This document shows positions 1,216 through 53,496 of a stretch of DNA of 64,000 nucleotides, piece by piece. The stretch comes from a phage. Under the pieces are notes generated by a model that searched no databases, was not told the origin of the DNA, and saw nothing but the letters and a program-made list of their open reading frames with translations. Every line of letters begins with the position of its first letter. Within the stretch, counting starts at the first letter, position 1. Location of the stretch: the sequence record PZ445439.1; one strand, written 5' to 3'. The position numbers and the translations under genes are program-made.

Positions 1216-3912
1216 TCAGCCAAACAGGAAGTCTAACGAAGCTTTTTCTTCATAGTCCATACCAGCCGATTCACACATGCCTGCAAGCGGTTTAACAAAC
1301 GATTTTTGGAACAAAGTTGAGTAGTCAATCCAAGACAGTACGTCAGAACGAATTTCTTTTGGAAGTTCTGTACCCGACGGCCAAGCAATGCATTTGTCAC
1401 CAAATGGATTTCCTTCACGCAATGGAAGAACCATTACTTTATTTCCATCCAAAATTGGAGCTACACCTAAACCGCTAACAGCTCGACGATAAGTTAGCAC
1501 ACCACGAATATGGAACGGACATTTAAATCCTGGCCAACCTTTATCATCATATTTCGCTATATCGTTCGCAGTTTTTACTTCAGCAATAACTTTATAGTCA
1601 AGTTGACGATATTCTTTCTCGAAGTTCTTGTAATATTCTTGGACAGACTCTTCACCTTCCTGAAGAATACGACGAATACTTTCTTCGAGAGCTTCTTGGA
1701 CCGCTTTAGGCGTTGAACTCTGCTGAGTTTCCATACCCATGATTTTTAGATGCGGTTCAGCAAATCGCTTATCTTCCATATCATATACGTTCAGAGCATA
1801 ACGCTTTTTCGCTTTCCAAAATCCACCAACGCCCTTTGAACCAAGTGGAGGGCAAGAAATAGCTTCACGGTCCATATGCATCAGATGCTCGCGGTTATTC
1901 ATATAATCACATAACTCACGATATGCAACATCAATCATAGGTTCCATCTTTTTCTTACCGAACTGATTCATGAATTCAACTAAATCGTTCTGCTCTTTGA
2001 ATCGGTCAAGACCAACTTTTTCAATAACTTTATCTACACAAACATATACCGAATCAGTATCACCTGCTGCAATGAAATCTTCGCCATTAGTTCCGCATAC
2101 TTTATTCAGATATTCATTAATTTTACGAGCAATCCACTGAATACCAACTTGGCCGAAAATTGTGATAGCAGTAGCATTTCGCAAATCATAGTAACGGAAA
2201 TGAATATTACCAAGAGCACCGTAAAGGCTGTTAATAAGAATTTTACGGTTCAGCTGATTTGTATTAGCAAGTGTAGCCGCTTTTTCACATTCTTCAATCA
2301 AACTATTGAGAACAGATTCAGTATAATTCGATAGTTCATTTAAGAAATCATCACTGAACTTAACATATCGTTCAACTTCAGGTTTAGTTGAACAAGACCC
2401 TACGCCTTTCATAATAATCTTTTTAATAGCTTCGGCATTCATTTCTTCAGCGAACATTTTCTTTTTCCAATCTTTACGCTGGAAAAATACTTTAGCGATT
2501 TCCTTTGGAATGATACCTTCTTGATGCTTATCATACATCCATCCATTCGGAGAACAAGAATATTCATCACTCGGTTTAGGAGCTGTTCCTGCGATATATT
2601 CATGAATTGGATGAACTTTAAACTGACCACGAATAGTCTCAGGACTAATGTTAACCTGACGAATAATGCTCGGATACAGAGACGTCAAGTCAAAACTCAT
2701 AATATATCGACGAGCAATTGGTTTAGGTTCAAATACAAATGCACCCGGAAAACTTTGTTTAACGTGCGAACCTTGTTGAGGAATAACCTTGTGTTCACCT
2801 TTCAATGAGTTAAAAATAATAGCATCCCAAGTTTTAATAGGACTCATTACACCAGAAAAAGGCATTTTAGCGTAATAAGACATACTTAAAACTAGATCAA
2901 TAAACCCGCGAATTTTATCAATTGCTTGAACTGATTCTACGTCAATGATGTTATAACTAATGTATCGTTGATGATTAGTCTCACGAAGTTTATTAATAGG
3001 ACCGTCGTATGGTAATTTACCTTTTTTGGTTTCATGTTGAGCAACTGATTCCAAAGAGAATGACGGCAAATTAGTAAAAGCAAATTTCTTGTACAAATCT
3101 AAATAATCAAGAATAGATACACCATCAATAGAATAAATTTCTTTGCTGCCGTACATATTTTGAATTAGTTTAGATTTTACTCGACCGATTGGAGAGAAGC
3201 GTTTCATACTACGTTCACCGAGAACCATTTTAACGCGATTCATGATATACGGAACGTCAAATCCCTCAATATTCCAACCAGTAAAAATAGCAGGTCGTTT
3301 CTGTTCCCAGAGATTGATATATTCCATGAGCATATCACGCTCATTATCGAATGGCATATAAATTACTCGGTCAAGAATTTCTTGAGGAACTTCATCACCA
3401 CCTTCACAGTCAAGCTTAGCAGCTAACTTTGCATCCCATTTTGATACTGAACCATACATTGAATTCAAAAGGTCGAAAACATAAAAACGATCATCAATTG
3501 AATCGTAATGAGTGATAGCATCAATTTCATATTCAGCTTTCATTGGGTCAGGAAATTTATCACCAGTAACCTCAATGTCACAGTTAGCTACACGAACAAA
3601 TTTTCGGTCATAAACAATTTCTGAACCGTATGTATCACTGATATAAGCGAGTTTAAAATCGTTCATACCGAGAGCTTCGAGACCGATGTCTTCCATTCGT
3701 TTCATCCAATCTCGAGCATCTTTCATTGATGGAAATTTTTGAGGAGCGCAGTTTTTACCATAGATGTCTTTGTACTTTGACTCTTCCTTACAATGCCTAA
3801 ACATAGTTGGAAGATATTCTACTTCACGAGTACGTTCCTTTCCATTTTCATCAATATAACGTTCAACAATATTATTTCCGACTGTTTCAATAGAGATATA
3901 AAATTCTTTCAT
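1216..3912 (-). CDS. 43: DNA polymerase (family B) with 3'-5' exonuclease
   Basis: 898 aa; exo motif NCDIEV, pol motifs DLTSLYPSII and GDTDSVYV. Confidence 0.97.
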   Translation of the reverse strand: MKEFYISIETVGNNIVERYIDENGKERTREVEYLPTMFRHCKEESKYKDIYGKNCAPQKFPSMKDARDWMKRMEDIGLEALGMNDFKLAYISDTYGSEIVYDRKFVRVANCDIEVTGDKFPDPMKAEYEIDAITHYDSIDDRFYVFDLLNSMYGSVSKWDAKLAAKLDCEGGDEVPQEILDRVIYMPFDNERDMLMEYINLWEQKRPAIFTGWNIEGFDVPYIMNRVKMVLGERSMKRFSPIGRVKSKLIQNMYGSKEIYSIDGVSILDYLDLYKKFAFTNLPSFSLESVAQHETKKGKLPYDGPINKLRETNHQRYISYNIIDVESVQAIDKIRGFIDLVLSMSYYAKMPFSGVMSPIKTWDAIIFNSLKGEHKVIPQQGSHVKQSFPGAFVFEPKPIARRYIMSFDLTSLYPSIIRQVNISPETIRGQFKVHPIHEYIAGTAPKPSDEYSCSPNGWMYDKHQEGIIPKEIAKVFFQRKDWKKKMFAEEMNAEAIKKIIMKGVGSCSTKPEVERYVKFSDDFLNELSNYTESVLNSLIEECEKAATLANTNQLNRKILINSLYGALGNIHFRYYDLRNATAITIFGQVGIQWIARKINEYLNKVCGTNGEDFIAAGDTDSVYVCVDKVIEKVGLDRFKEQNDLVEFMNQFGKKKMEPMIDVAYRELCDYMNNREHLMHMDREAISCPPLGSKGVGGFWKAKKRYALNVYDMEDKRFAEPHLKIMGMETQQSSTPKAVQEALEESIRRILQEGEESVQEYYKNFEKEYRQLDYKVIAEVKTANDIAKYDDKGWPGFKCPFHIRGVLTYRRAVSGLGVAPILDGNKVMVLPLREGNPFGDKCIAWPSGTELPKEIRSDVLSWIDYSTLFQKSFVKPLAGMCESAGMDYEEKASLDFLFG

Positions 3913-27203: not shown

Positions 27204-27730
27204 TATGCGAGTACCGTCTTTAACCGTTCTTCAAACTTCCGAAGAGTATTTTGGCGTTCAGCTCTTTGCTTTTTGTAAGTTTCAATACGCTCTGAAATGA
27301 GAGTGTATCGTTCATTCACTGATTCTTTCATAAAATCAGGAATTTCACGAGAAGCTTTAATCTCGTCAAATTTATCAATAACAGCTTGCTCTTCAGCAAT
27401 TAAGTTATCATACATTAAAATATCTTTCTTGATGAACTCAATATCTTCTTGAGTTACACGAGATAATTTAGATGCTTTATCCTTTTTGTACTGTTCGTTA
27501 GTATCACGAGACCAATGTAATATACGATTTTTATTCGTATTCTTGTAAATTTCTACAATACCAATCTCATCAATAATAACGATCCAATTCCAACGGGATT
27601 TGTAAATTTGTCCTCCATCAACAGTGATTTCACCTCCGATTGAGATGTCATTAAAGAACTTGCTTTGTGCTTCAGATTTAAATTTACCATCGTTGTAATT
27701 TACCAAGTTGAAAATATCTTTAGCATTCAT
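27203..27730 (-). CDS. Hypothetical protein
   Basis: Start set at MNAKDIF; the longer track ORF reads through the promoter repeat. Confidence 0.55.
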   Translation of the reverse strand: MNAKDIFNLVNYNDGKFKSEAQSKFFNDISIGGEITVDGGQIYKSRWNWIVIIDEIGIVEIYKNTNKNRILHWSRDTNEQYKKDKASKLSRVTQEDIEFIKKDILMYDNLIAEEQAVIDKFDEIKASREIPDFMKESVNERYTLISERIETYKKQRAERQNTLRKFEERLKTVLA

Positions 27731-27757
27731 TTTCTGTTCCTCCGTAGTTGATAGTTG

Positions 27758-27789
27758 TATAGTACCACAGAGGAACAGTCTTGTAAACA
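27758..27789 (-). promoter_or_regulatory. Early promoter (-35 GTTTACA, -10 TACTAT)
   Basis: Repeat-family member. Confidence 0.6.
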
Positions 27790-36658: not shown

Positions 36659-37120
36659 TCATTGAGTTTTAATTACTGCTTTAGAAGCCTTTCCTGGTAA
36701 ACGACGACTGTTGATAATTGCCATCCTGCATTGAAGTGACGGGTCTTTGAACTTCTCATTAGGTTTACAAACCGTAAATCCAAGCCAAAGATTTCCATCA
36801 GTGATTTCTAAACGTCCAGGGCGATATTCAATTCCATCGATAAAATCTTCATCAATATCAGGACGCGGAGGCATACTCAGGAATTCATTAACTTCTAAAA
36901 CATGGTCTTTTATTTTATGGAATAATTCAAAAACATATGTCTCATCAATCTCCCGTTGAATTGCACGATCAAGAAGATGCTGAGAATATTTTAGATGAAA
37001 CGATGAGACCCCTGCTGCTTTTGATGCCTCACGAATCTCATTGTTAATTTGACGAAACTCCGACTCAAAGTGACGACGAAGCTTATTTCGACGGATAAAA
37101 ACTTCTGTGTTGATAGTCAT
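36659..37120 (-). CDS. regB: Endoribonuclease RegB
   Basis: 153 aa; position and length as T4 RegB. Confidence 0.85.
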   Translation of the reverse strand: MTINTEVFIRRNKLRRHFESEFRQINNEIREASKAAGVSSFHLKYSQHLLDRAIQREIDETYVFELFHKIKDHVLEVNEFLSMPPRPDIDEDFIDGIEYRPGRLEITDGNLWLGFTVCKPNEKFKDPSLQCRMAIINSRRLPGKASKAVIKTQ

Positions 37121-37146
37121 GTTATTCTCCTCTTAACTTATAGAAA

Positions 37147-37177
37147 AATTATACCACAGTTAAGAGGAAAAGTAAAC
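37147..37177 (-). promoter_or_regulatory. Early promoter (-35 GTTTAC, -10 TGGTATAAT)
   Basis: Upstream of regB. Confidence 0.55.
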
Positions 37178-39350: not shown

Positions 39351-39929
39351 TTAATTACCACGGGCTGCATTAGCAACGGCGTAAGCGTACTGAACATTAG
39401 CGTCCTTAAACGTACCTTTAGAGGTATCTATTTCTGCCTTAAAGCCGCCTTTAGCCATAACATCGGCAAATTCTTTACGGAAAGCCATTGCATCAAGACC
39501 TTTCCATGATGATTTGTGCTTGGCGAATTCAAGACCAGCGTAGTTGACAGCCTTAGCTAATTTATTATCAATGACCCATTTACCGGCTTTAGGCACAAAC
39601 TTCGGGCCTTTTTGTTTAGAGAACAGTTTTAAATTCCAGCGACGAAGATCACTGTCGGCTTTAACAAAAGCTGCGTCTAAGTTACTAGCAACAACATCTT
39701 CAATATGAGCAAATTTAAGTCCGTCAACTTCAATATTTAAATCGGTACGCCAGCGAAGTCCTTCCCAAGCGAAAGCTTTAAAATCGGAAGCTTTTGTAGC
39801 TAAGTATCGTTCAAGTGGAGCAGTTTTAGGGTCAAAGCCGTTTCCACCACGATAGTTCCACTCGTCCTTATTAATGCCTTTGGCCTTTACTACAGAAGCT
39901 TCAGCAATAAATTCTTGATACGTTTTCAT
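39351..39929 (-). CDS. ipIII: Internal protein III (capsid-targeted)
   Basis: 192 aa; N-terminal MKTYQEFIAE capsid-targeting sequence. Confidence 0.8.
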   Translation of the reverse strand: MKTYQEFIAEASVVKAKGINKDEWNYRGGNGFDPKTAPLERYLATKASDFKAFAWEGLRWRTDLNIEVDGLKFAHIEDVVASNLDAAFVKADSDLRRWNLKLFSKQKGPKFVPKAGKWVIDNKLAKAVNYAGLEFAKHKSSWKGLDAMAFRKEFADVMAKGGFKAEIDTSKGTFKDANVQYAYAVANAARGN

Positions 39930-39954
39930 TTTGTTCCTATTGATTTAATTTATG

Positions 39955-40269
39955 TTATTCTTTAGGGAAGTTTTTAGAGTATGCATCATAAAGTTTATTA
40001 CCGATGCGACGGAAGACTTTAGCTGCAAAACGGTTTTCAGGGTTTTTAATCATGATTTGCATCATGTAAGTTCCTGCATCCGAAAGAGCTTCTTCATAGT
40101 ACCCATTAATTTCTTTAAGAGTCCTACGTTTACCGCCAGGACCGTCAACAGTAATTTTCCATTTACCTGTAGAAGTGCGGCTCGGTGGCTCAACTTGTTC
40201 AATCCAAATATAACCACCTTCAACGCGTTGGTTGGCGGATTCTGCAATAAATTCTTGATACGTTTTCAT
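39955..40269 (-). CDS. ipII: Internal protein II-like (capsid-targeted)
   Basis: 104 aa; MKTYQEFIAE N-terminus. Confidence 0.7.
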   Translation of the reverse strand: MKTYQEFIAESANQRVEGGYIWIEQVEPPSRTSTGKWKITVDGPGGKRRTLKEINGYYEEALSDAGTYMMQIMIKNPENRFAAKVFRRIGNKLYDAYSKNFPKE

Positions 40270-40299
40270 TTTTGTTTCCTTGTTTGTTTTGATAGAGTA

Positions 40300-40329
40300 A
40301 TTATATCATATTAATACTTAAGCGTAAAC
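40300..40329 (-). promoter_or_regulatory. Early promoter (-35 GTTTAC, -10 GATATAAT)
   Basis: Upstream of ipII. Confidence 0.5.
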
Positions 40330-40332
40330 TGT

Positions 40333-40593
40333 TTAAGCTTTACCACCAGAAATAATTCCGAAGTTGTTAAAATCATATCCAATATCGTCAACATCTACTT
40401 TAGGGCTTGCTACAACATAAGCAATTTCACTACGTTTTGCATAGGTGTTTATTTCTCTACCATCGCCGCCTAGGAAAGAATACCCATTACGTTTTAATGA
40501 GCCAAAATCTTCGGCATCACCAACGAAAGCTTTAACTTTAAATTTGGGGCCTTTGGCATCTGCTTCAGCGATAAATTCTTGATACATTTTCAT
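40333..40593 (-). CDS. Additional internal-protein-like ORF with capsid-targeting N-terminus
   Basis: 86 aa; MKMYQEFIAE. Confidence 0.6.
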   Translation of the reverse strand: MKMYQEFIAEADAKGPKFKVKAFVGDAEDFGSLKRNGYSFLGGDGREINTYAKRSEIAYVVASPKVDVDDIGYDFNNFGIISGGKA

Positions 40594-40599
40594 TTTTCC

Positions 40600-41013
40600 T
40601 TAGTAAATTGATTTACCATAGTATTTGTACCAAGTAGGGCGTTGAGCAATTTTTTCATCTAAGCGAGCTTGACTTATCGCAATGGACGCTTCGGACGGGA
40701 CATAATTATTACGAAATTCGACAGGGATGTCGGAAATATCCTGGACAGTCGTGTCCTTGATTTTGAAACCACGTTTCAAGCATTCAGCGATTAGCTCGAT
40801 TTGACGTAAACGTAAAAATTCGAGTTTGTCGTAAAAGAATGTTACGTGACCTGTGCCTAAGATAAATGTTGGAGAGATTTTAAAATCCTTTACACGTTTA
40901 CCGTTTTGAACATGTTTACGGACTGCACCAAATACGCGTGGTAATTCACGATACTCAGCCATAAGATGTTGGTCGGTCAGTTCAGAAACAAGTGTTAAAT
41001 TGATACGAGTCAT
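40600..41013 (-). CDS. denV: Endonuclease V (pyrimidine dimer DNA glycosylase)
   Basis: 138 aa from [12 protein letters not shown]; matches recalled T4 DenV. Confidence 0.93.
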
Positions 41014-41038
41014 AATTTCCTCCAAGTAATTGATGAAT

Positions 41039-41070
41039 GTATAGTATCAAAGTCCTTGGAGGAAGTAAAC
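41039..41070 (-). promoter_or_regulatory. Early promoter
   Basis: -35 GTTTAC and -10 GATACTAT upstream of denV. Confidence 0.5.
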
Positions 41071-49108: not shown

Positions 49109-49519
49109 TCAGCCTCTATCAACGATAGCATGAGTATGGGCATTTACGATTTGCCACCAGTCGAAACGATTGGAACCATAATCTGGTTTATTTTCATTTT
49201 CTTTAATGATATCACGCAATTTATCTTCTGTTTCAGCATACGCAATTAAATCATCATATCCACCACAAGGATAATAATTATCACCTGCGAATAAAAGAAA
49301 ATTTACCTTAGATGGATTTACGTAATAATGGTCTTTAGGATATTTAGTTCCTCTCCAATCAGTTACTTCAACATAACGGTAAGAAAATCCATTTTTACTT
49401 TCAATCCAACTCCACGCTTCAAAAGGAGTATTAAAAACTTTATCAGGTATTAAATTACCTTCAAAATGAGAAGGATTTGCATAATCCCCGGCATAAACAT
49501 AATATTCGTTAATACTCAT
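49109..49519 (-). CDS. Hypothetical protein
   Basis: 136 aa ORF. Confidence 0.55.
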   Translation of the reverse strand: MSINEYYVYAGDYANPSHFEGNLIPDKVFNTPFEAWSWIESKNGFSYRYVEVTDWRGTKYPKDHYYVNPSKVNFLLFAGDNYYPCGGYDDLIAYAETEDKLRDIIKENENKPDYGSNRFDWWQIVNAHTHAIVDRG

Positions 49520-49705
49520 TTATTCACCTTTAGAAATTTTATCCATAACGATAGCAATTAAACCAATTAAAAATGCTACTACAAGTGAAAACACATTTTC
49601 TGCTGTAGTTAATAATCCGCATATAAATCCAACAAACATTGAAAAACTAAAAGCGGAAGCAGAAATTGCAATAGCAACATTTCGAATTAATTCACAACGT
49701 TTCAT
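49520..49705 (-). CDS. Small membrane protein
   Basis: 61 aa, two hydrophobic segments. Confidence 0.45.
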   Translation of the reverse strand: MKRCELIRNVAIAISASAFSFSMFVGFICGLLTTAENVFSLVVAFLIGLIAIVMDKISKGE

Positions 49706-49734
49706 TTTATTCTCCTCAGTAGTTGATAGGGTAA

Positions 49735-49763
49735 TAGTATCACTACCCTATCTAAAAGTAAAC
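49735..49763 (-). promoter_or_regulatory. Early promoter embedded in a 9 bp inverted repeat (GATAGGGTA...TACCCTATC)
   Basis: -35 GTTTAC, -10 GATACTAT; perfect palindrome arms at 49725..49752. Confidence 0.5.
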
Positions 49764-49997
49764 TCATTTTTTACGAAAAATTGATTTATTTTCTGCTGCC
49801 CATTTTTCAATAACTGCAGCCGGACCAGTAACAACAATTTTATCACCGTAATCTTCTGCGGCGAGTTGACCGAAATCATCTAATGCATCACGAAGAACTC
49901 CATGAGGCATTTCACCCATTTTATCTTTCTTGCCAGTGTAAATAAACTCAACTTTTACATCAGCAGTTTCAGCAATAAATTCTTGATACGTTTTCAT
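49764..49997 (-). CDS. Internal protein at the ipI locus (capsid-targeted; short variant)
   Basis: MKTYQEFIAE N-terminus; 77 aa from that ATG. Confidence 0.6.
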   Translation of the reverse strand: MKTYQEFIAETADVKVEFIYTGKKDKMGEMPHGVLRDALDDFGQLAAEDYGDKIVVTGPAAVIEKWAAENKSIFRKK

Positions 49998-50024
49998 TTT
50001 GTTCTCCAATTTCACATTTGTTTT

Positions 50025-50054
50025 GATAGGGTAATAGTATCACTACTAAAACCC
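50025..50054 (-). promoter_or_regulatory. Early promoter
   Basis: Near-duplicate of the 49735 promoter, upstream of the ipI-locus ORF. Confidence 0.5.
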
Positions 50055-50075
50055 CATGTAAACAACTTTGTGAAA

Positions 50076-50772
<697 letters not shown>

Positions 50773-50773
<1 letters not shown>

Positions 50774-51486
50774 TATAGTACCTTTAGTGTATTTTTAATT
50801 TTAGAAAAAAGTTCTTCAAGAGAACCATCGTTTGTAATTACTAAATCGCCATCACGAATTGGCAATCCAGCTTCTGTAATATGAGTATCATTGGATTTTT
50901 GACCAGGACGAACTACATGAATTACTGTAGCACCCATCGCCCTAGCCGCATCCATTTCATGATCTTGACGAGTATCAGGAACGATATAATAATCATAACC
51001 TGAGTTAAATTTATCAAGATAATCTAAAGCAAATAATTTTACCCAGTACATGCGGTCGAAGTTATTAACAATCAAATCCGTACCTAGGGCTTGCATCAGA
51101 CGACGGACTGACCATTGATCTTCAATATTATTTATAACGTCAGTAATTTTGTTAAATGCTACGAAATTAACTGCGTCATCAAAAACAAACACACCTTTAA
51201 TTGGGCTTTTACTATTAAGATAGCAAAATGCTTGTTCCATAATCGTAATTACTTCTAATTTAGTCAGATTTAAATTAGTTTCACGATCATAGTCAATTCC
51301 TTCAAACTCTTTACGAGTTAAGCAAGGATAGTCAGTGTTTGCTGCAAATACACCCCATGCATAAGCCAATGCATCCTTAATAGGACCAGCAAGTTGGTAT
51401 TTAACTGCAGAATAATTGCTCATGATAAAATCAGCAGTAGTATCTTTTCCACTGCGCTTTACACCGCTTAAAAAGATTAGTTTCAT
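50773..51486 (-). CDS. 1: Deoxynucleoside monophosphate kinase
   Basis: MKLIFLSGVKRSGKDT P-loop; start set at that ATG. Confidence 0.88.
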
Positions 51487-53449: not shown

Positions 53450-53460
53450 TGGATTCTCCT

Positions 53461-53468
53461 TATAAATA
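53461..53468 (+). promoter_or_regulatory. Late promoter TATAAATA for gene 53
   Basis: Exact TATAAATA 29 nt upstream of gene 53 ATG. Confidence 0.7.
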
Positions 53469-53475
53469 GATAATA

Positions 53476-53483
53476 TATTTATA
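53476..53483 (-). promoter_or_regulatory. Late promoter TATAAATA for gene 4
   Basis: Exact TATAAATA on minus strand about 27 nt upstream of gene 4 ATG. Confidence 0.65.
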
Positions 53484-53496
53484 AACAGGAGGGCCC

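Follow-up and report, generated by a model that had tools for sequence, protein, structure and literature searches.

The phage DNA analysed here (hereafter the window, meaning the whole stretch of 64,000 nucleotides) very probably holds, when all parts of the interpretation are taken together, a T6-like ipI locus in which the gene for the internal protein Ip6 is set between linkers that allow such genes to be shuffled, in which the linkers specify RNA hairpins conserved in their pairing, and in which Ip6 acts as a nuclease blocker. Sequence comparison demonstrates that the 77-aa ORF at the centre of the locus is the known internal head protein Ip6 (IpVI), unrelated to T4 IPI except for the leader, and that the hairpins of related phages keep their pairing rather than their sequence. 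In our judgement the locus, the Ip6 allele and the linkers combining a promoter with a stem-loop are already known from the literature and from GenBank annotation, the original description (Repoila et al. 1994, EMBO J 13:4181) being taken here as it is relayed in Arbiol 2010 (PMC2839356).

The ipI locus and the protein Ip6

Genome matches of 95-99% identity place the source phage in Tequatrovirus, close to T6/RB18. When a 1.6-kb region was compared with phage records, 779 of them matched; Escherichia phage vB_Eco_EL came first (99.4%), followed by T6, RB18, PST and other Tequatrovirus genomes with 95-97% identity over the same region. The ipI locus occupies positions 49520-50531 on the minus strand and has the order 57B(Acb1) - linker - ip6 - linker - trna.4, a synteny common to T4, T6, PST and JK1 (table 1). 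The genes of this part of the window are all encoded on the minus strand, where the order from 5' to 3' is gene 1 (dNMP kinase), 57A, 57B, the 77-aa ORF, the 61-aa ORF and the 136-aa ORF. The conserved left border of the locus is 57B, whose stop codon TAA is at 50078-50076, and the conserved right border is trna.4. Since Acb1, the product of 57B, is encoded directly next to ip6, the stretch can be regarded as an anti-defence island or neighbourhood.

Table 1. Features of the ipI locus in the window.
Feature	Position	Strand	Basis or details
Gene 57B = Acb1 (anti-CBASS phosphodiesterase)	50076..50531	-	Pfam PF23474 Acb1, E 2.6e-60; syntenic with T4 57B
57B-ip6 spacer, 78 nt	between 57B and 49997	-	
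Extended interrupted palindrome	50007..50078	-	28 bp in four stems (10+6+7+5); entire ip6 promoter inside
41-nt direct repeat	50023..50063 and 49723-49763	-	80% identity, 24-nt exact run; start-to-start distance 300 nt
ip6 early promoter	50034..50062	-	-35 TTTACA 50062-50057, 17-nt spacer, -10 TACTAT 50039-50034
ip6 (IpVI), internal head protein precursor, 77 aa	49764..49997	-	phrog_8111; Ip6/IpVI annotation in relatives
ip6-trna.4 spacer, 58 nt	between 49764 and 49705	-	
trna.4 early promoter	49734..49762	-	-35 TTTACT 49762-49757, -10 TACTAT 49739-49734; consensus match
Hairpin at trna.4 promoter	49725..49752	-	perfect 9-bp inverted repeat GATAGGGTA/TACCCTATC, 10-nt gap
trna.4, 61-aa predicted membrane protein	49520..49705	-	phrog_1692, E 6e-35; annotated trna.4 in T4, PST, wV7
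136-aa ORF	49519..49109	-	

A preliminary description of the window had correctly delimited the 77-aa ORF, including its start at MKTYQEFIAE, and had proposed from its small size that it represents a different allele of the polymorphic ipI locus. The T4 IPI precursor is indeed longer (95 aa), and the alignment with T4 IPI that had been suggested as a check bears the proposal out: BLASTP aligns the two proteins not over their full length but over residues 1-14 only, which correspond to the capsid-targeting leader. The allele, however, already has a name. A PHROG profile search matches the ORF to phrog_8111 ('internal virion protein') with an E-value of 4.2e-52, residues 1-77 covering profile positions 1-77 of 77, and the same protein is annotated as Ip6 or IpVI in the phages JK1, PST and VR26. 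Its identity to protein cluster P0001, which is present on 29 contigs, is 99%, and that to Ip6 of the VR20/VR26 type 77-79%; its homologues, 11 clusters in all, are confined to T4-like phages.

The leader, encoded at 49997-49968 and carrying an IAE motif at residues 8-10, conforms to the pattern of T-even internal proteins, MKT[YF][KQ]EF... ending in a prohead-protease site (L/I)xE, and recurs on three further ORFs that make up part of the second IP locus of the window. IP genes are defined by position as lying at one of two loci, either between 57B and trna.4 or next to ipIII, and ip6 sits by synteny in the former slot. Because the specificity of the T4 prohead protease for (L/I)xE is known, Ip6 is predicted to be cleaved after Glu10, which would leave a mature protein of 67 aa. 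The gene is preceded by the Shine-Dalgarno sequence GGAG at 50007-50004.

Compared with Ip6/IpVI of T6, PST, JK1 and VR26, the protein has the same length of 77 aa, is 77-99% identical, and is likewise encoded directly upstream of trna.4. Here ip6 is the sole cassette, whereas T6 and PST carry ipV besides, and its 5'UTR is of the same 'AAAACAAATGTGAAATTGGAG' type as in JK1 and Ozark, unlike that of T6 and PST.

As to what Ip6 does, the most useful comparison is with T4 IPI, whose mature form IPI*, a GmrSD inhibitor, consists of 76 aa (PMC3012670). The two share the slot, the kind of leader and the small size, and by analogy packaging, leader cleavage and injection are presumably common to both; they have no sequence similarity past residues 1-14, and they differ in the length of the precursor (95 versus 77 aa) and in that of the mature protein (76 versus a predicted 67 aa). 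Ip1, Ip2 and Ip3 each inhibit one distinct enzyme of the GmrSD family and confer no cross-protection (PMC12373910). By analogy with these three, Ip6 would be injected together with the DNA and would probably act against one specific nuclease of the host, of the GmrSD/type IV kind. The AlphaFold model of Ip6 (pLDDT 80.5) has a small ferredoxin-like alpha/beta fold, for which a Foldseek search of the PDB found no significant neighbour (best E 0.08) and did not retrieve IPI*. The Pfam search assigned Ip6 to no family, and a literature search for Ip6 and Ip5 by name found nothing.

Early promoters and cassette linkers

Both copies of the 41-nt direct repeat fit the consensus of T4-type early promoters, TTTACW-N17-TAYWAT, which has 13 matches in the window where 0.39 would be expected, every one of them on the minus strand; the 19-nt core GTGATACTATTACCCTATC is found in the window at two sites only, i.e. 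in the two copies. The preliminary description had noticed a promoter inside the perfect inverted repeat and a near-copy of it at 50025..50054. Both observations hold, the near-copy being part of the 41-nt repeat, but the roles given to the two promoters were the reverse of what the strand dictates. Since the ORF lies on the minus strand, it is the copy at 50034-50062 that drives ip6, while the palindromic copy, which had been taken for the promoter of the ORF, lies downstream of ip6 and drives trna.4. From the spacing, transcription of ip6 is predicted to start near 50027. The promoter of trna.4 begins 1 nt past the ip6 stop codon, and the same element precedes trna.4 in T6, PST, JK1, Ozark, HMD-9 and N2. 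GenBank records of T4 have no promoter features annotated over the ipI-locus region.

The interval from 57B to trna.4 was extracted from 17 genomes belonging to five genera, and each cassette in them turned out to be preceded by the same kind of linker. It opens with a few conserved 3' codons of the upstream ORF and A/T-rich sequence (TAATTTCACAAAGTTG). A strong early promoter of the T4 type comes next (TTTACW, a 17-nt spacer with GTGA at its end, TACTAT), then a short 5'UTR, of which four types occur, with a Shine-Dalgarno sequence, and last the leader codons. What distinguishes one genome from another is whole cassettes, with the linkers as boundaries. Thus the slot contains ipI (95 aa) in T4, ipV (85 aa) followed by ipVI (77 aa) in T6 and PST, ip9, ip5 and ip6 in VR26, ipI and ip6 in Ozark, genes for Ips of 90 and 102 aa in HMD-9 and N2, and ip5 in wV7; in JK1 it contains a single gene annotated as Ip6, which is the ip6-only configuration of the source phage. 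In some linkers the left and right arms are of different types, which makes them chimeric: in HMD-9 and N2 the 5' half of a trna.4-type promoter is joined to a 3' half of the ipI/ipV type within the -10 core. Sites matching the 61-nt trna.4 linker number 1618 among 786 phage records, and in 498 of the records a site covers 80% or more of the query. In Klebsiella phages of Jiaodavirus, whose flanks no longer match, the linker is still 94.5% identical. A pattern made of the -10 core and the right arm hit only 27 loci in IMG/VR, and several of these have no relation to T4-like phages.

Such repeated linkers would provide the homology by which the T4 recombination machinery inserts, deletes and swaps Ip cassettes, and the source phage would represent a one-cassette (ip6 only) outcome of this exchange. 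The idea itself is not new. According to Arbiol 2010 (PMC2839356), who cite Repoila 1994, IP loci of T-evens carry an early promoter and an AT-rich stem-loop resembling a PeSL, which are thought to drive IP shuffling. As far as that account goes, the elements described here occupy the same locus and have the same organisation, namely variable IP genes with a common leader, each preceded by a T4 early promoter and an AT-rich stem-loop.

The PeSLs of RB49/phi1, PST and nt-1 (PMC2839356; Comeau 2014, PMC4122927) also repeat an early promoter, a stem-loop and a Shine-Dalgarno sequence; like the ipI linkers they flank variable ORFs, and they serve as a recombination linker, the role proposed here for the ipI linkers. 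The ipI-locus elements share with them the succession of sigma70-type early promoter, Shine-Dalgarno sequence and start codon (TTTACW-N17-TACTAT, GGAG/GAGGAG and ATG) as well as the presence of repeated copies around ORFs that vary between close relatives, as seen in the 17 genomes and at the 1618 places in 786 records. They differ in the stem-loop. In PeSLs it lies just upstream of the promoter and terminates transcription, whereas the stems of the ipI locus enclose the -10 hexamer or the whole promoter and have no U-tract, so that a terminator stem-loop immediately upstream of the promoter is lacking. The authors of the PeSL work themselves term the IP elements analogues of PeSLs, not homologues.

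Hairpins around the promoters

Folded as RNA, the hairpin at the trna.4 promoter has a 12-bp stem (including two G·U pairs) and a 4-nt loop and encloses the -10 hexamer, with a predicted energy of -16.4 kcal/mol (z -4.92), compared with only -6.9 kcal/mol when folded as DNA. It ends 9 nt short of the trna.4 Shine-Dalgarno sequence, so it cannot mask it. A larger interrupted palindrome, which the preliminary description had missed, surrounds the upstream promoter copy. Its 28 bp, with the outer arms AATTTCACA/TGTGAAATT, span the whole spacer, the outer ends being the 57B stop codon and the first G of the ip6 Shine-Dalgarno sequence; the RNA has a minimum free energy of -28.9 kcal/mol (z -5.68), none of 200 shuffled sequences is as stable, and JK1 and Ozark share this fold. 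Folded as DNA, both structures have little stability (-5 to -7 kcal/mol, z -1.3 to -3.6).

Perfect 9-bp inverted repeats with a short loop are as such not rare, there being 9 in the window as against 10.0 +/- 3.9 in block shuffles. That the one at the trna.4 promoter is not a random occurrence follows from its position over the -10 hexamer, from the 12-bp RNA stem of which it is part, and from its conservation with covariation in relatives. Strong folding distinguishes two of the 13 early-promoter matches of the window, those of ip6 and trna.4, the others reaching -1.4 to -8.2 kcal/mol. The promoter that lies within the second IP locus (40270-40332) shares the start region but forms no hairpin, which means that a hairpin is not obligatory for Ip expression. 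The chimeric linkers before the 102-aa Ip have broken stems, with energies of -7.4 (HMD-9) and -2.4 (N2) kcal/mol. The hairpin characterises neither early promoters in general nor IP promoters as a class, being absent from the 11 other early promoters and from the IP promoter of the second locus.

The palindrome at the trna.4 promoter is conserved in relatives, as the preliminary description had required of it, in the sense that pairing is kept while the sequence varies. At least six different arm pairs occur, each complementary: GATAGGGTA / TACCCTATC in the window and elsewhere, TGATGAGGTA / TACCTCATCA at the T4 ipI promoter, GATGGAGA / TCTCCATC in wV7, ATGGGATA / TATCCCAT in VR26, GGGCT / AGCCC in JS98 and GGGTT / AACCC in Jiaodavirus. 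The left arm is found in several registers relative to the -35 and -10 hexamers, and the loops range from about 4 to 18 nt. In an alignment of 14 distinct linkers sharing one register, 92% of the cells are paired, as opposed to 32-73% when partners are slid, and three pairs have undergone compensatory changes on both sides; in column shuffles 7-20 of 500 reach the observed values, a proportion that is not to be read as a probability. Among intermediates G·U predominates on the sense strand, the variable pairs 14/35, 15/34 and 17/32 including 11 G·U cells versus 3 A·C cells (the latter read from the alignment). The extended hairpin shows two double changes, from G-C to A-U in N2 and from U-A to C-G in JS98.

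Pairing is thus kept through compensatory and wobble changes, as expected of a conserved RNA hairpin, with modest counts taken from related sequences; we regard these comparisons as good but not overwhelming evidence of selection on pairing.

Possible roles of the hairpins

Arms that covary, registers that vary and intermediates with G·U pairs fit a nucleic-acid hairpin and not a protein operator, and the most likely place for the hairpin to form, judging from the sequences, is read-through RNA. We favour a role at the level of RNA, which could work as follows. Transcription from the embedded promoter would begin within the 3' arm, some 7 nt downstream of TACTAT, and the resulting RNA could therefore form no hairpin, so that only RNA reading through from upstream would carry the whole structure between two cistrons. 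Such RNA might come from early promoters or from late-promoter-like TATAAATA boxes, which are present on the minus strand at 51136 (inside gene 1) and 53483. In read-through RNA the hairpin may be an intercistronic insulator or an element of stability or processing, and at ip6, where the first G of the Shine-Dalgarno sequence is part of its base, it may reduce the access of ribosomes.

In T4, hairpins mask the translation starts of genes e, soc, 49 and I-TevI in read-through transcripts. The ipI-locus elements resemble these in that the promoter lies inside the hairpin and only transcripts from upstream can fold. The 3' arm of the T4 start-masking hairpins, however, is the Shine-Dalgarno sequence itself, whereas in the ipI-locus elements it is the start of the transcript, and just the first G of the ip6 Shine-Dalgarno sequence is paired. 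Exactly the start-masking arrangement is found at three other early promoters of the window, those of denV, regB and a 175-aa ORF, where the spacer is complementary to the downstream Shine-Dalgarno sequence (-18 to -23 kcal/mol).

The preliminary description had seen in the palindrome a possible operator. A dimeric repressor, of phage or host, that bound the dyad would shut off the early promoter, and it is true that the dyad is perfect and centred on the -10 hexamer and that the shut-off of T4 early promoters is not fully understood (PMC2988021). A protein site would nevertheless be expected to conserve the sequence of its half-sites and their spacing, whereas here the arms differ between cassettes and genera and yet stay complementary (at least six arm pairs), the left arm takes several registers and leaves loops of about 4 to 18 nt, intermediates of the G·U type are tolerated, and eleven other early promoters of the window have no dyad. 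With no conserved half-site at a fixed spacing, the operator was rejected, and we consider it extremely improbable. Hardly better placed, and very improbable in our view, is a terminator of the PeSL type, by which the stem-loop would isolate each cassette transcriptionally. The PeSLs of RB49/phi1 do join a terminator stem-loop to an early promoter (PMC2839356), and the ipI-locus hairpin follows immediately 3' of the upstream stop codon; but neither hairpin is followed by a U-tract, the downstream sequences being AACUACUGAGG and GGAGAACAAAA, the stem overlaps the -10 hexamer instead of preceding the -35 hexamer, and a terminator scan found none at either hairpin, for which reason an intrinsic terminator was rejected as well.

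The conservation of structure around an invariant 12-nt core, GTGATACTATTA, could also be accounted for at the level of DNA, if a cruciform or a fold of single-stranded DNA were cut or bound by a structure-specific enzyme (e.g. endonuclease VII) or by an unknown recombinase; cassette exchange would then be targeted, in loose analogy to the attC sites of integrons. The cassettes are small, have one orientation and one site each, the chimeric arms place crossovers inside the GTGATACTATTA core, and PeSL stem-loops have been the subject of speculation as targets of recombination proteins (Arbiol 2010, PMC2839356). Against this stand the weak energies of the DNA hairpins (-5 to -7 kcal/mol, z -1.3 to -3.6) and the fact that a G·T pair on the sense strand is an A·C mismatch on the other, which makes a symmetric cruciform poorer. 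Moreover, the roughly 100 nt of plain homology between linkers are ample for T4 homologous recombination, and neither the ORF list nor the Pfam and PHROG searches revealed a recombinase gene in the ipI locus. We therefore give a DNA recombination signal a slim chance. The hairpins may finally have no function, the palindromes being by-products of quasi-palindrome templated correction and gene conversion that hitch-hike with the linker. This would agree with the frequency of 9-bp inverted repeats expected by chance, with the broken stems of some natural linkers that have retained their gene, and with the stemless IP promoter of the second locus, and the close kinship of the sequences weakens the covariation statistics. 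It is nonetheless unlikely, as independent arm pairs all keep their pairing in Dhakavirus, Gaprivervirus, Jiaodavirus and the wV7 type, the groups whose arms were compared for this purpose, the extended 28-bp structure has a z of -5.7, and two double compensatory changes have occurred in otherwise identical contexts.

A bolder proposal is that the promoter-embedded hairpins are not passive but form a structure-defined functional signal common to Ip cassettes, either an intercistronic site of the RNase III kind, for processing or insulation, or a recombination site in folded DNA of the attC kind; we think this distinctly unlikely. Were the former version true, each cassette for an injected protein would be an autonomous expression unit, and were the latter true, cassette exchange would be targeted at an anti-restriction hotspot; on either version the IP loci would correspond, in phages, to gene-cassette arrays that have a structural signal of their own. 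Leaving this proposal aside, the fact that linker hairpins are kept by covariation across several genera of T4-like phages is the only residue of some, if mild, interest beyond what is already known. For the annotation of the source phage it matters that its ipI locus holds Ip6, not IPI. By analogy with the strict specificity reported for Ip1-3, the source phage, which lacks ipI, should have no defence against the IPI-sensitive GmrSD of E. coli CT596; in the same way, Ip6 may instead protect the phage against some other type IV enzyme.

Early promoters repeated within the window

Besides the ipI locus, the window holds a second internal-protein locus (see table), whose leader-bearing ORFs of 86, 104 and 192 aa match phrog_2667, phrog_3966 and phrog_5341, the last being ipIII-like. 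The promoter within this locus has the start region TAC(T/C)CTATCAAAAC in common with the ipI-locus linkers, the repeated units of early promoter, 5'UTR, Shine-Dalgarno sequence and leader codons; no hairpin occurs at this promoter (-1.8 kcal/mol). Elsewhere in the window, a 29-nt early promoter sequence, TTTACAAGACTGTTCCTCTGTGGTACTAT, is found in identical form at two sites 26.7 kb apart, with the start region ACAACTATCAACTAC common to both. The pair forms a further repeated regulatory linker, which could support recombination. ACAACTATCA lies 3' of the -10 in five of the 13 early promoters of the window.

Features in the window and in the ValerieMcCarty02 comparison stretch (L040)
Feature	Coordinates	Strand	Content or gene
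Second internal-protein locus	39351-40593	minus	three ORFs with capsid-targeting leader
Promoter in second internal-protein locus	40270-40332	minus	between first two ORFs
Identical promoter pair	1068-1096 and 27759-27787	minus	TTTACAAGACTGTTCCTCTGTGGTACTAT
Promoter complementary to Shine-Dalgarno	41013-41069	minus	denV/endonuclease V
Promoter complementary to Shine-Dalgarno	37120-37176	minus	regB endoribonuclease
Promoter complementary to Shine-Dalgarno	27730-27787	minus	175-aa ORF
Piece conserved in Jiaodavirus	window 49674-49746; L040 2501-2571		-10, 5'UTR, first trna.4 codons

Promoters complementary to Shine-Dalgarno regions and an inverted repeat

Three more early promoters of the window each have, in the -35/-10 spacer, a stretch of 9-11 nt that is complementary to the Shine-Dalgarno region of their own gene, with RNA hairpins predicted at -18.4 (denV), -19.6 (regB) and -23.2 kcal/mol (175-aa ORF). 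In read-through RNA the hairpin would hide the ribosome-binding site, which promoter-proximal transcripts of the same genes would leave unmasked. A perfect 9-bp inverted repeat with a 7-nt loop, TTATAAATA/TATTTATAA, lies at 53460-53484, upstream of the start of a minus-strand ORF (GGAGAATCCAATG), and yields a late-promoter-like TATAAATA box on each strand (plus 53461, minus 53483).

The ipI locus and its linker in related phages

Gene 57B (50076-50531, minus strand) matches Acb1 (PF23474, E 2.6e-60), clearly identifying its predicted product as an Acb1 anti-CBASS protein; most related GenBank/RefSeq records still label it 'RNA ligase' or 'hypothetical'. The cassette that comes first after 57B in JS98 (comparison stretch L038, about 3090-3290, minus strand) carries no annotation. 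It overlaps the 57B stop codon, begins with (M)KSYKEFLTEA and ends in GPQSDIDSWVSENSSWLK, a sequence similar to GPAAVIEKWAAENKSIFRKK at the C-terminus of Ip6; the cassette is possibly a distant Ip6 relative. One linker of IMG/VR 2706796299 (L023, near 2043-2061) bears a tandem duplication of the -10 and the right arm of the hairpin stem, TACTATTACCTCATCAAGA TACTATTACCTCATCAAAA, consistent with slippage or unequal exchange within the conserved core. The record of Klebsiella phage ValerieMcCarty02 contains a second linker copy, with an N-rich stretch between the copies, and this duplication is probably an assembly artefact. In about 117 Klebsiella T4-like phages (Jiaodavirus), a piece of about 72 nt is the sole megablast match (94.5% identity), the surrounding sequence having diverged beyond megablast detection. 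Such a match between diverged flanks suggests that the linker is either under strong constraint or exchanged.
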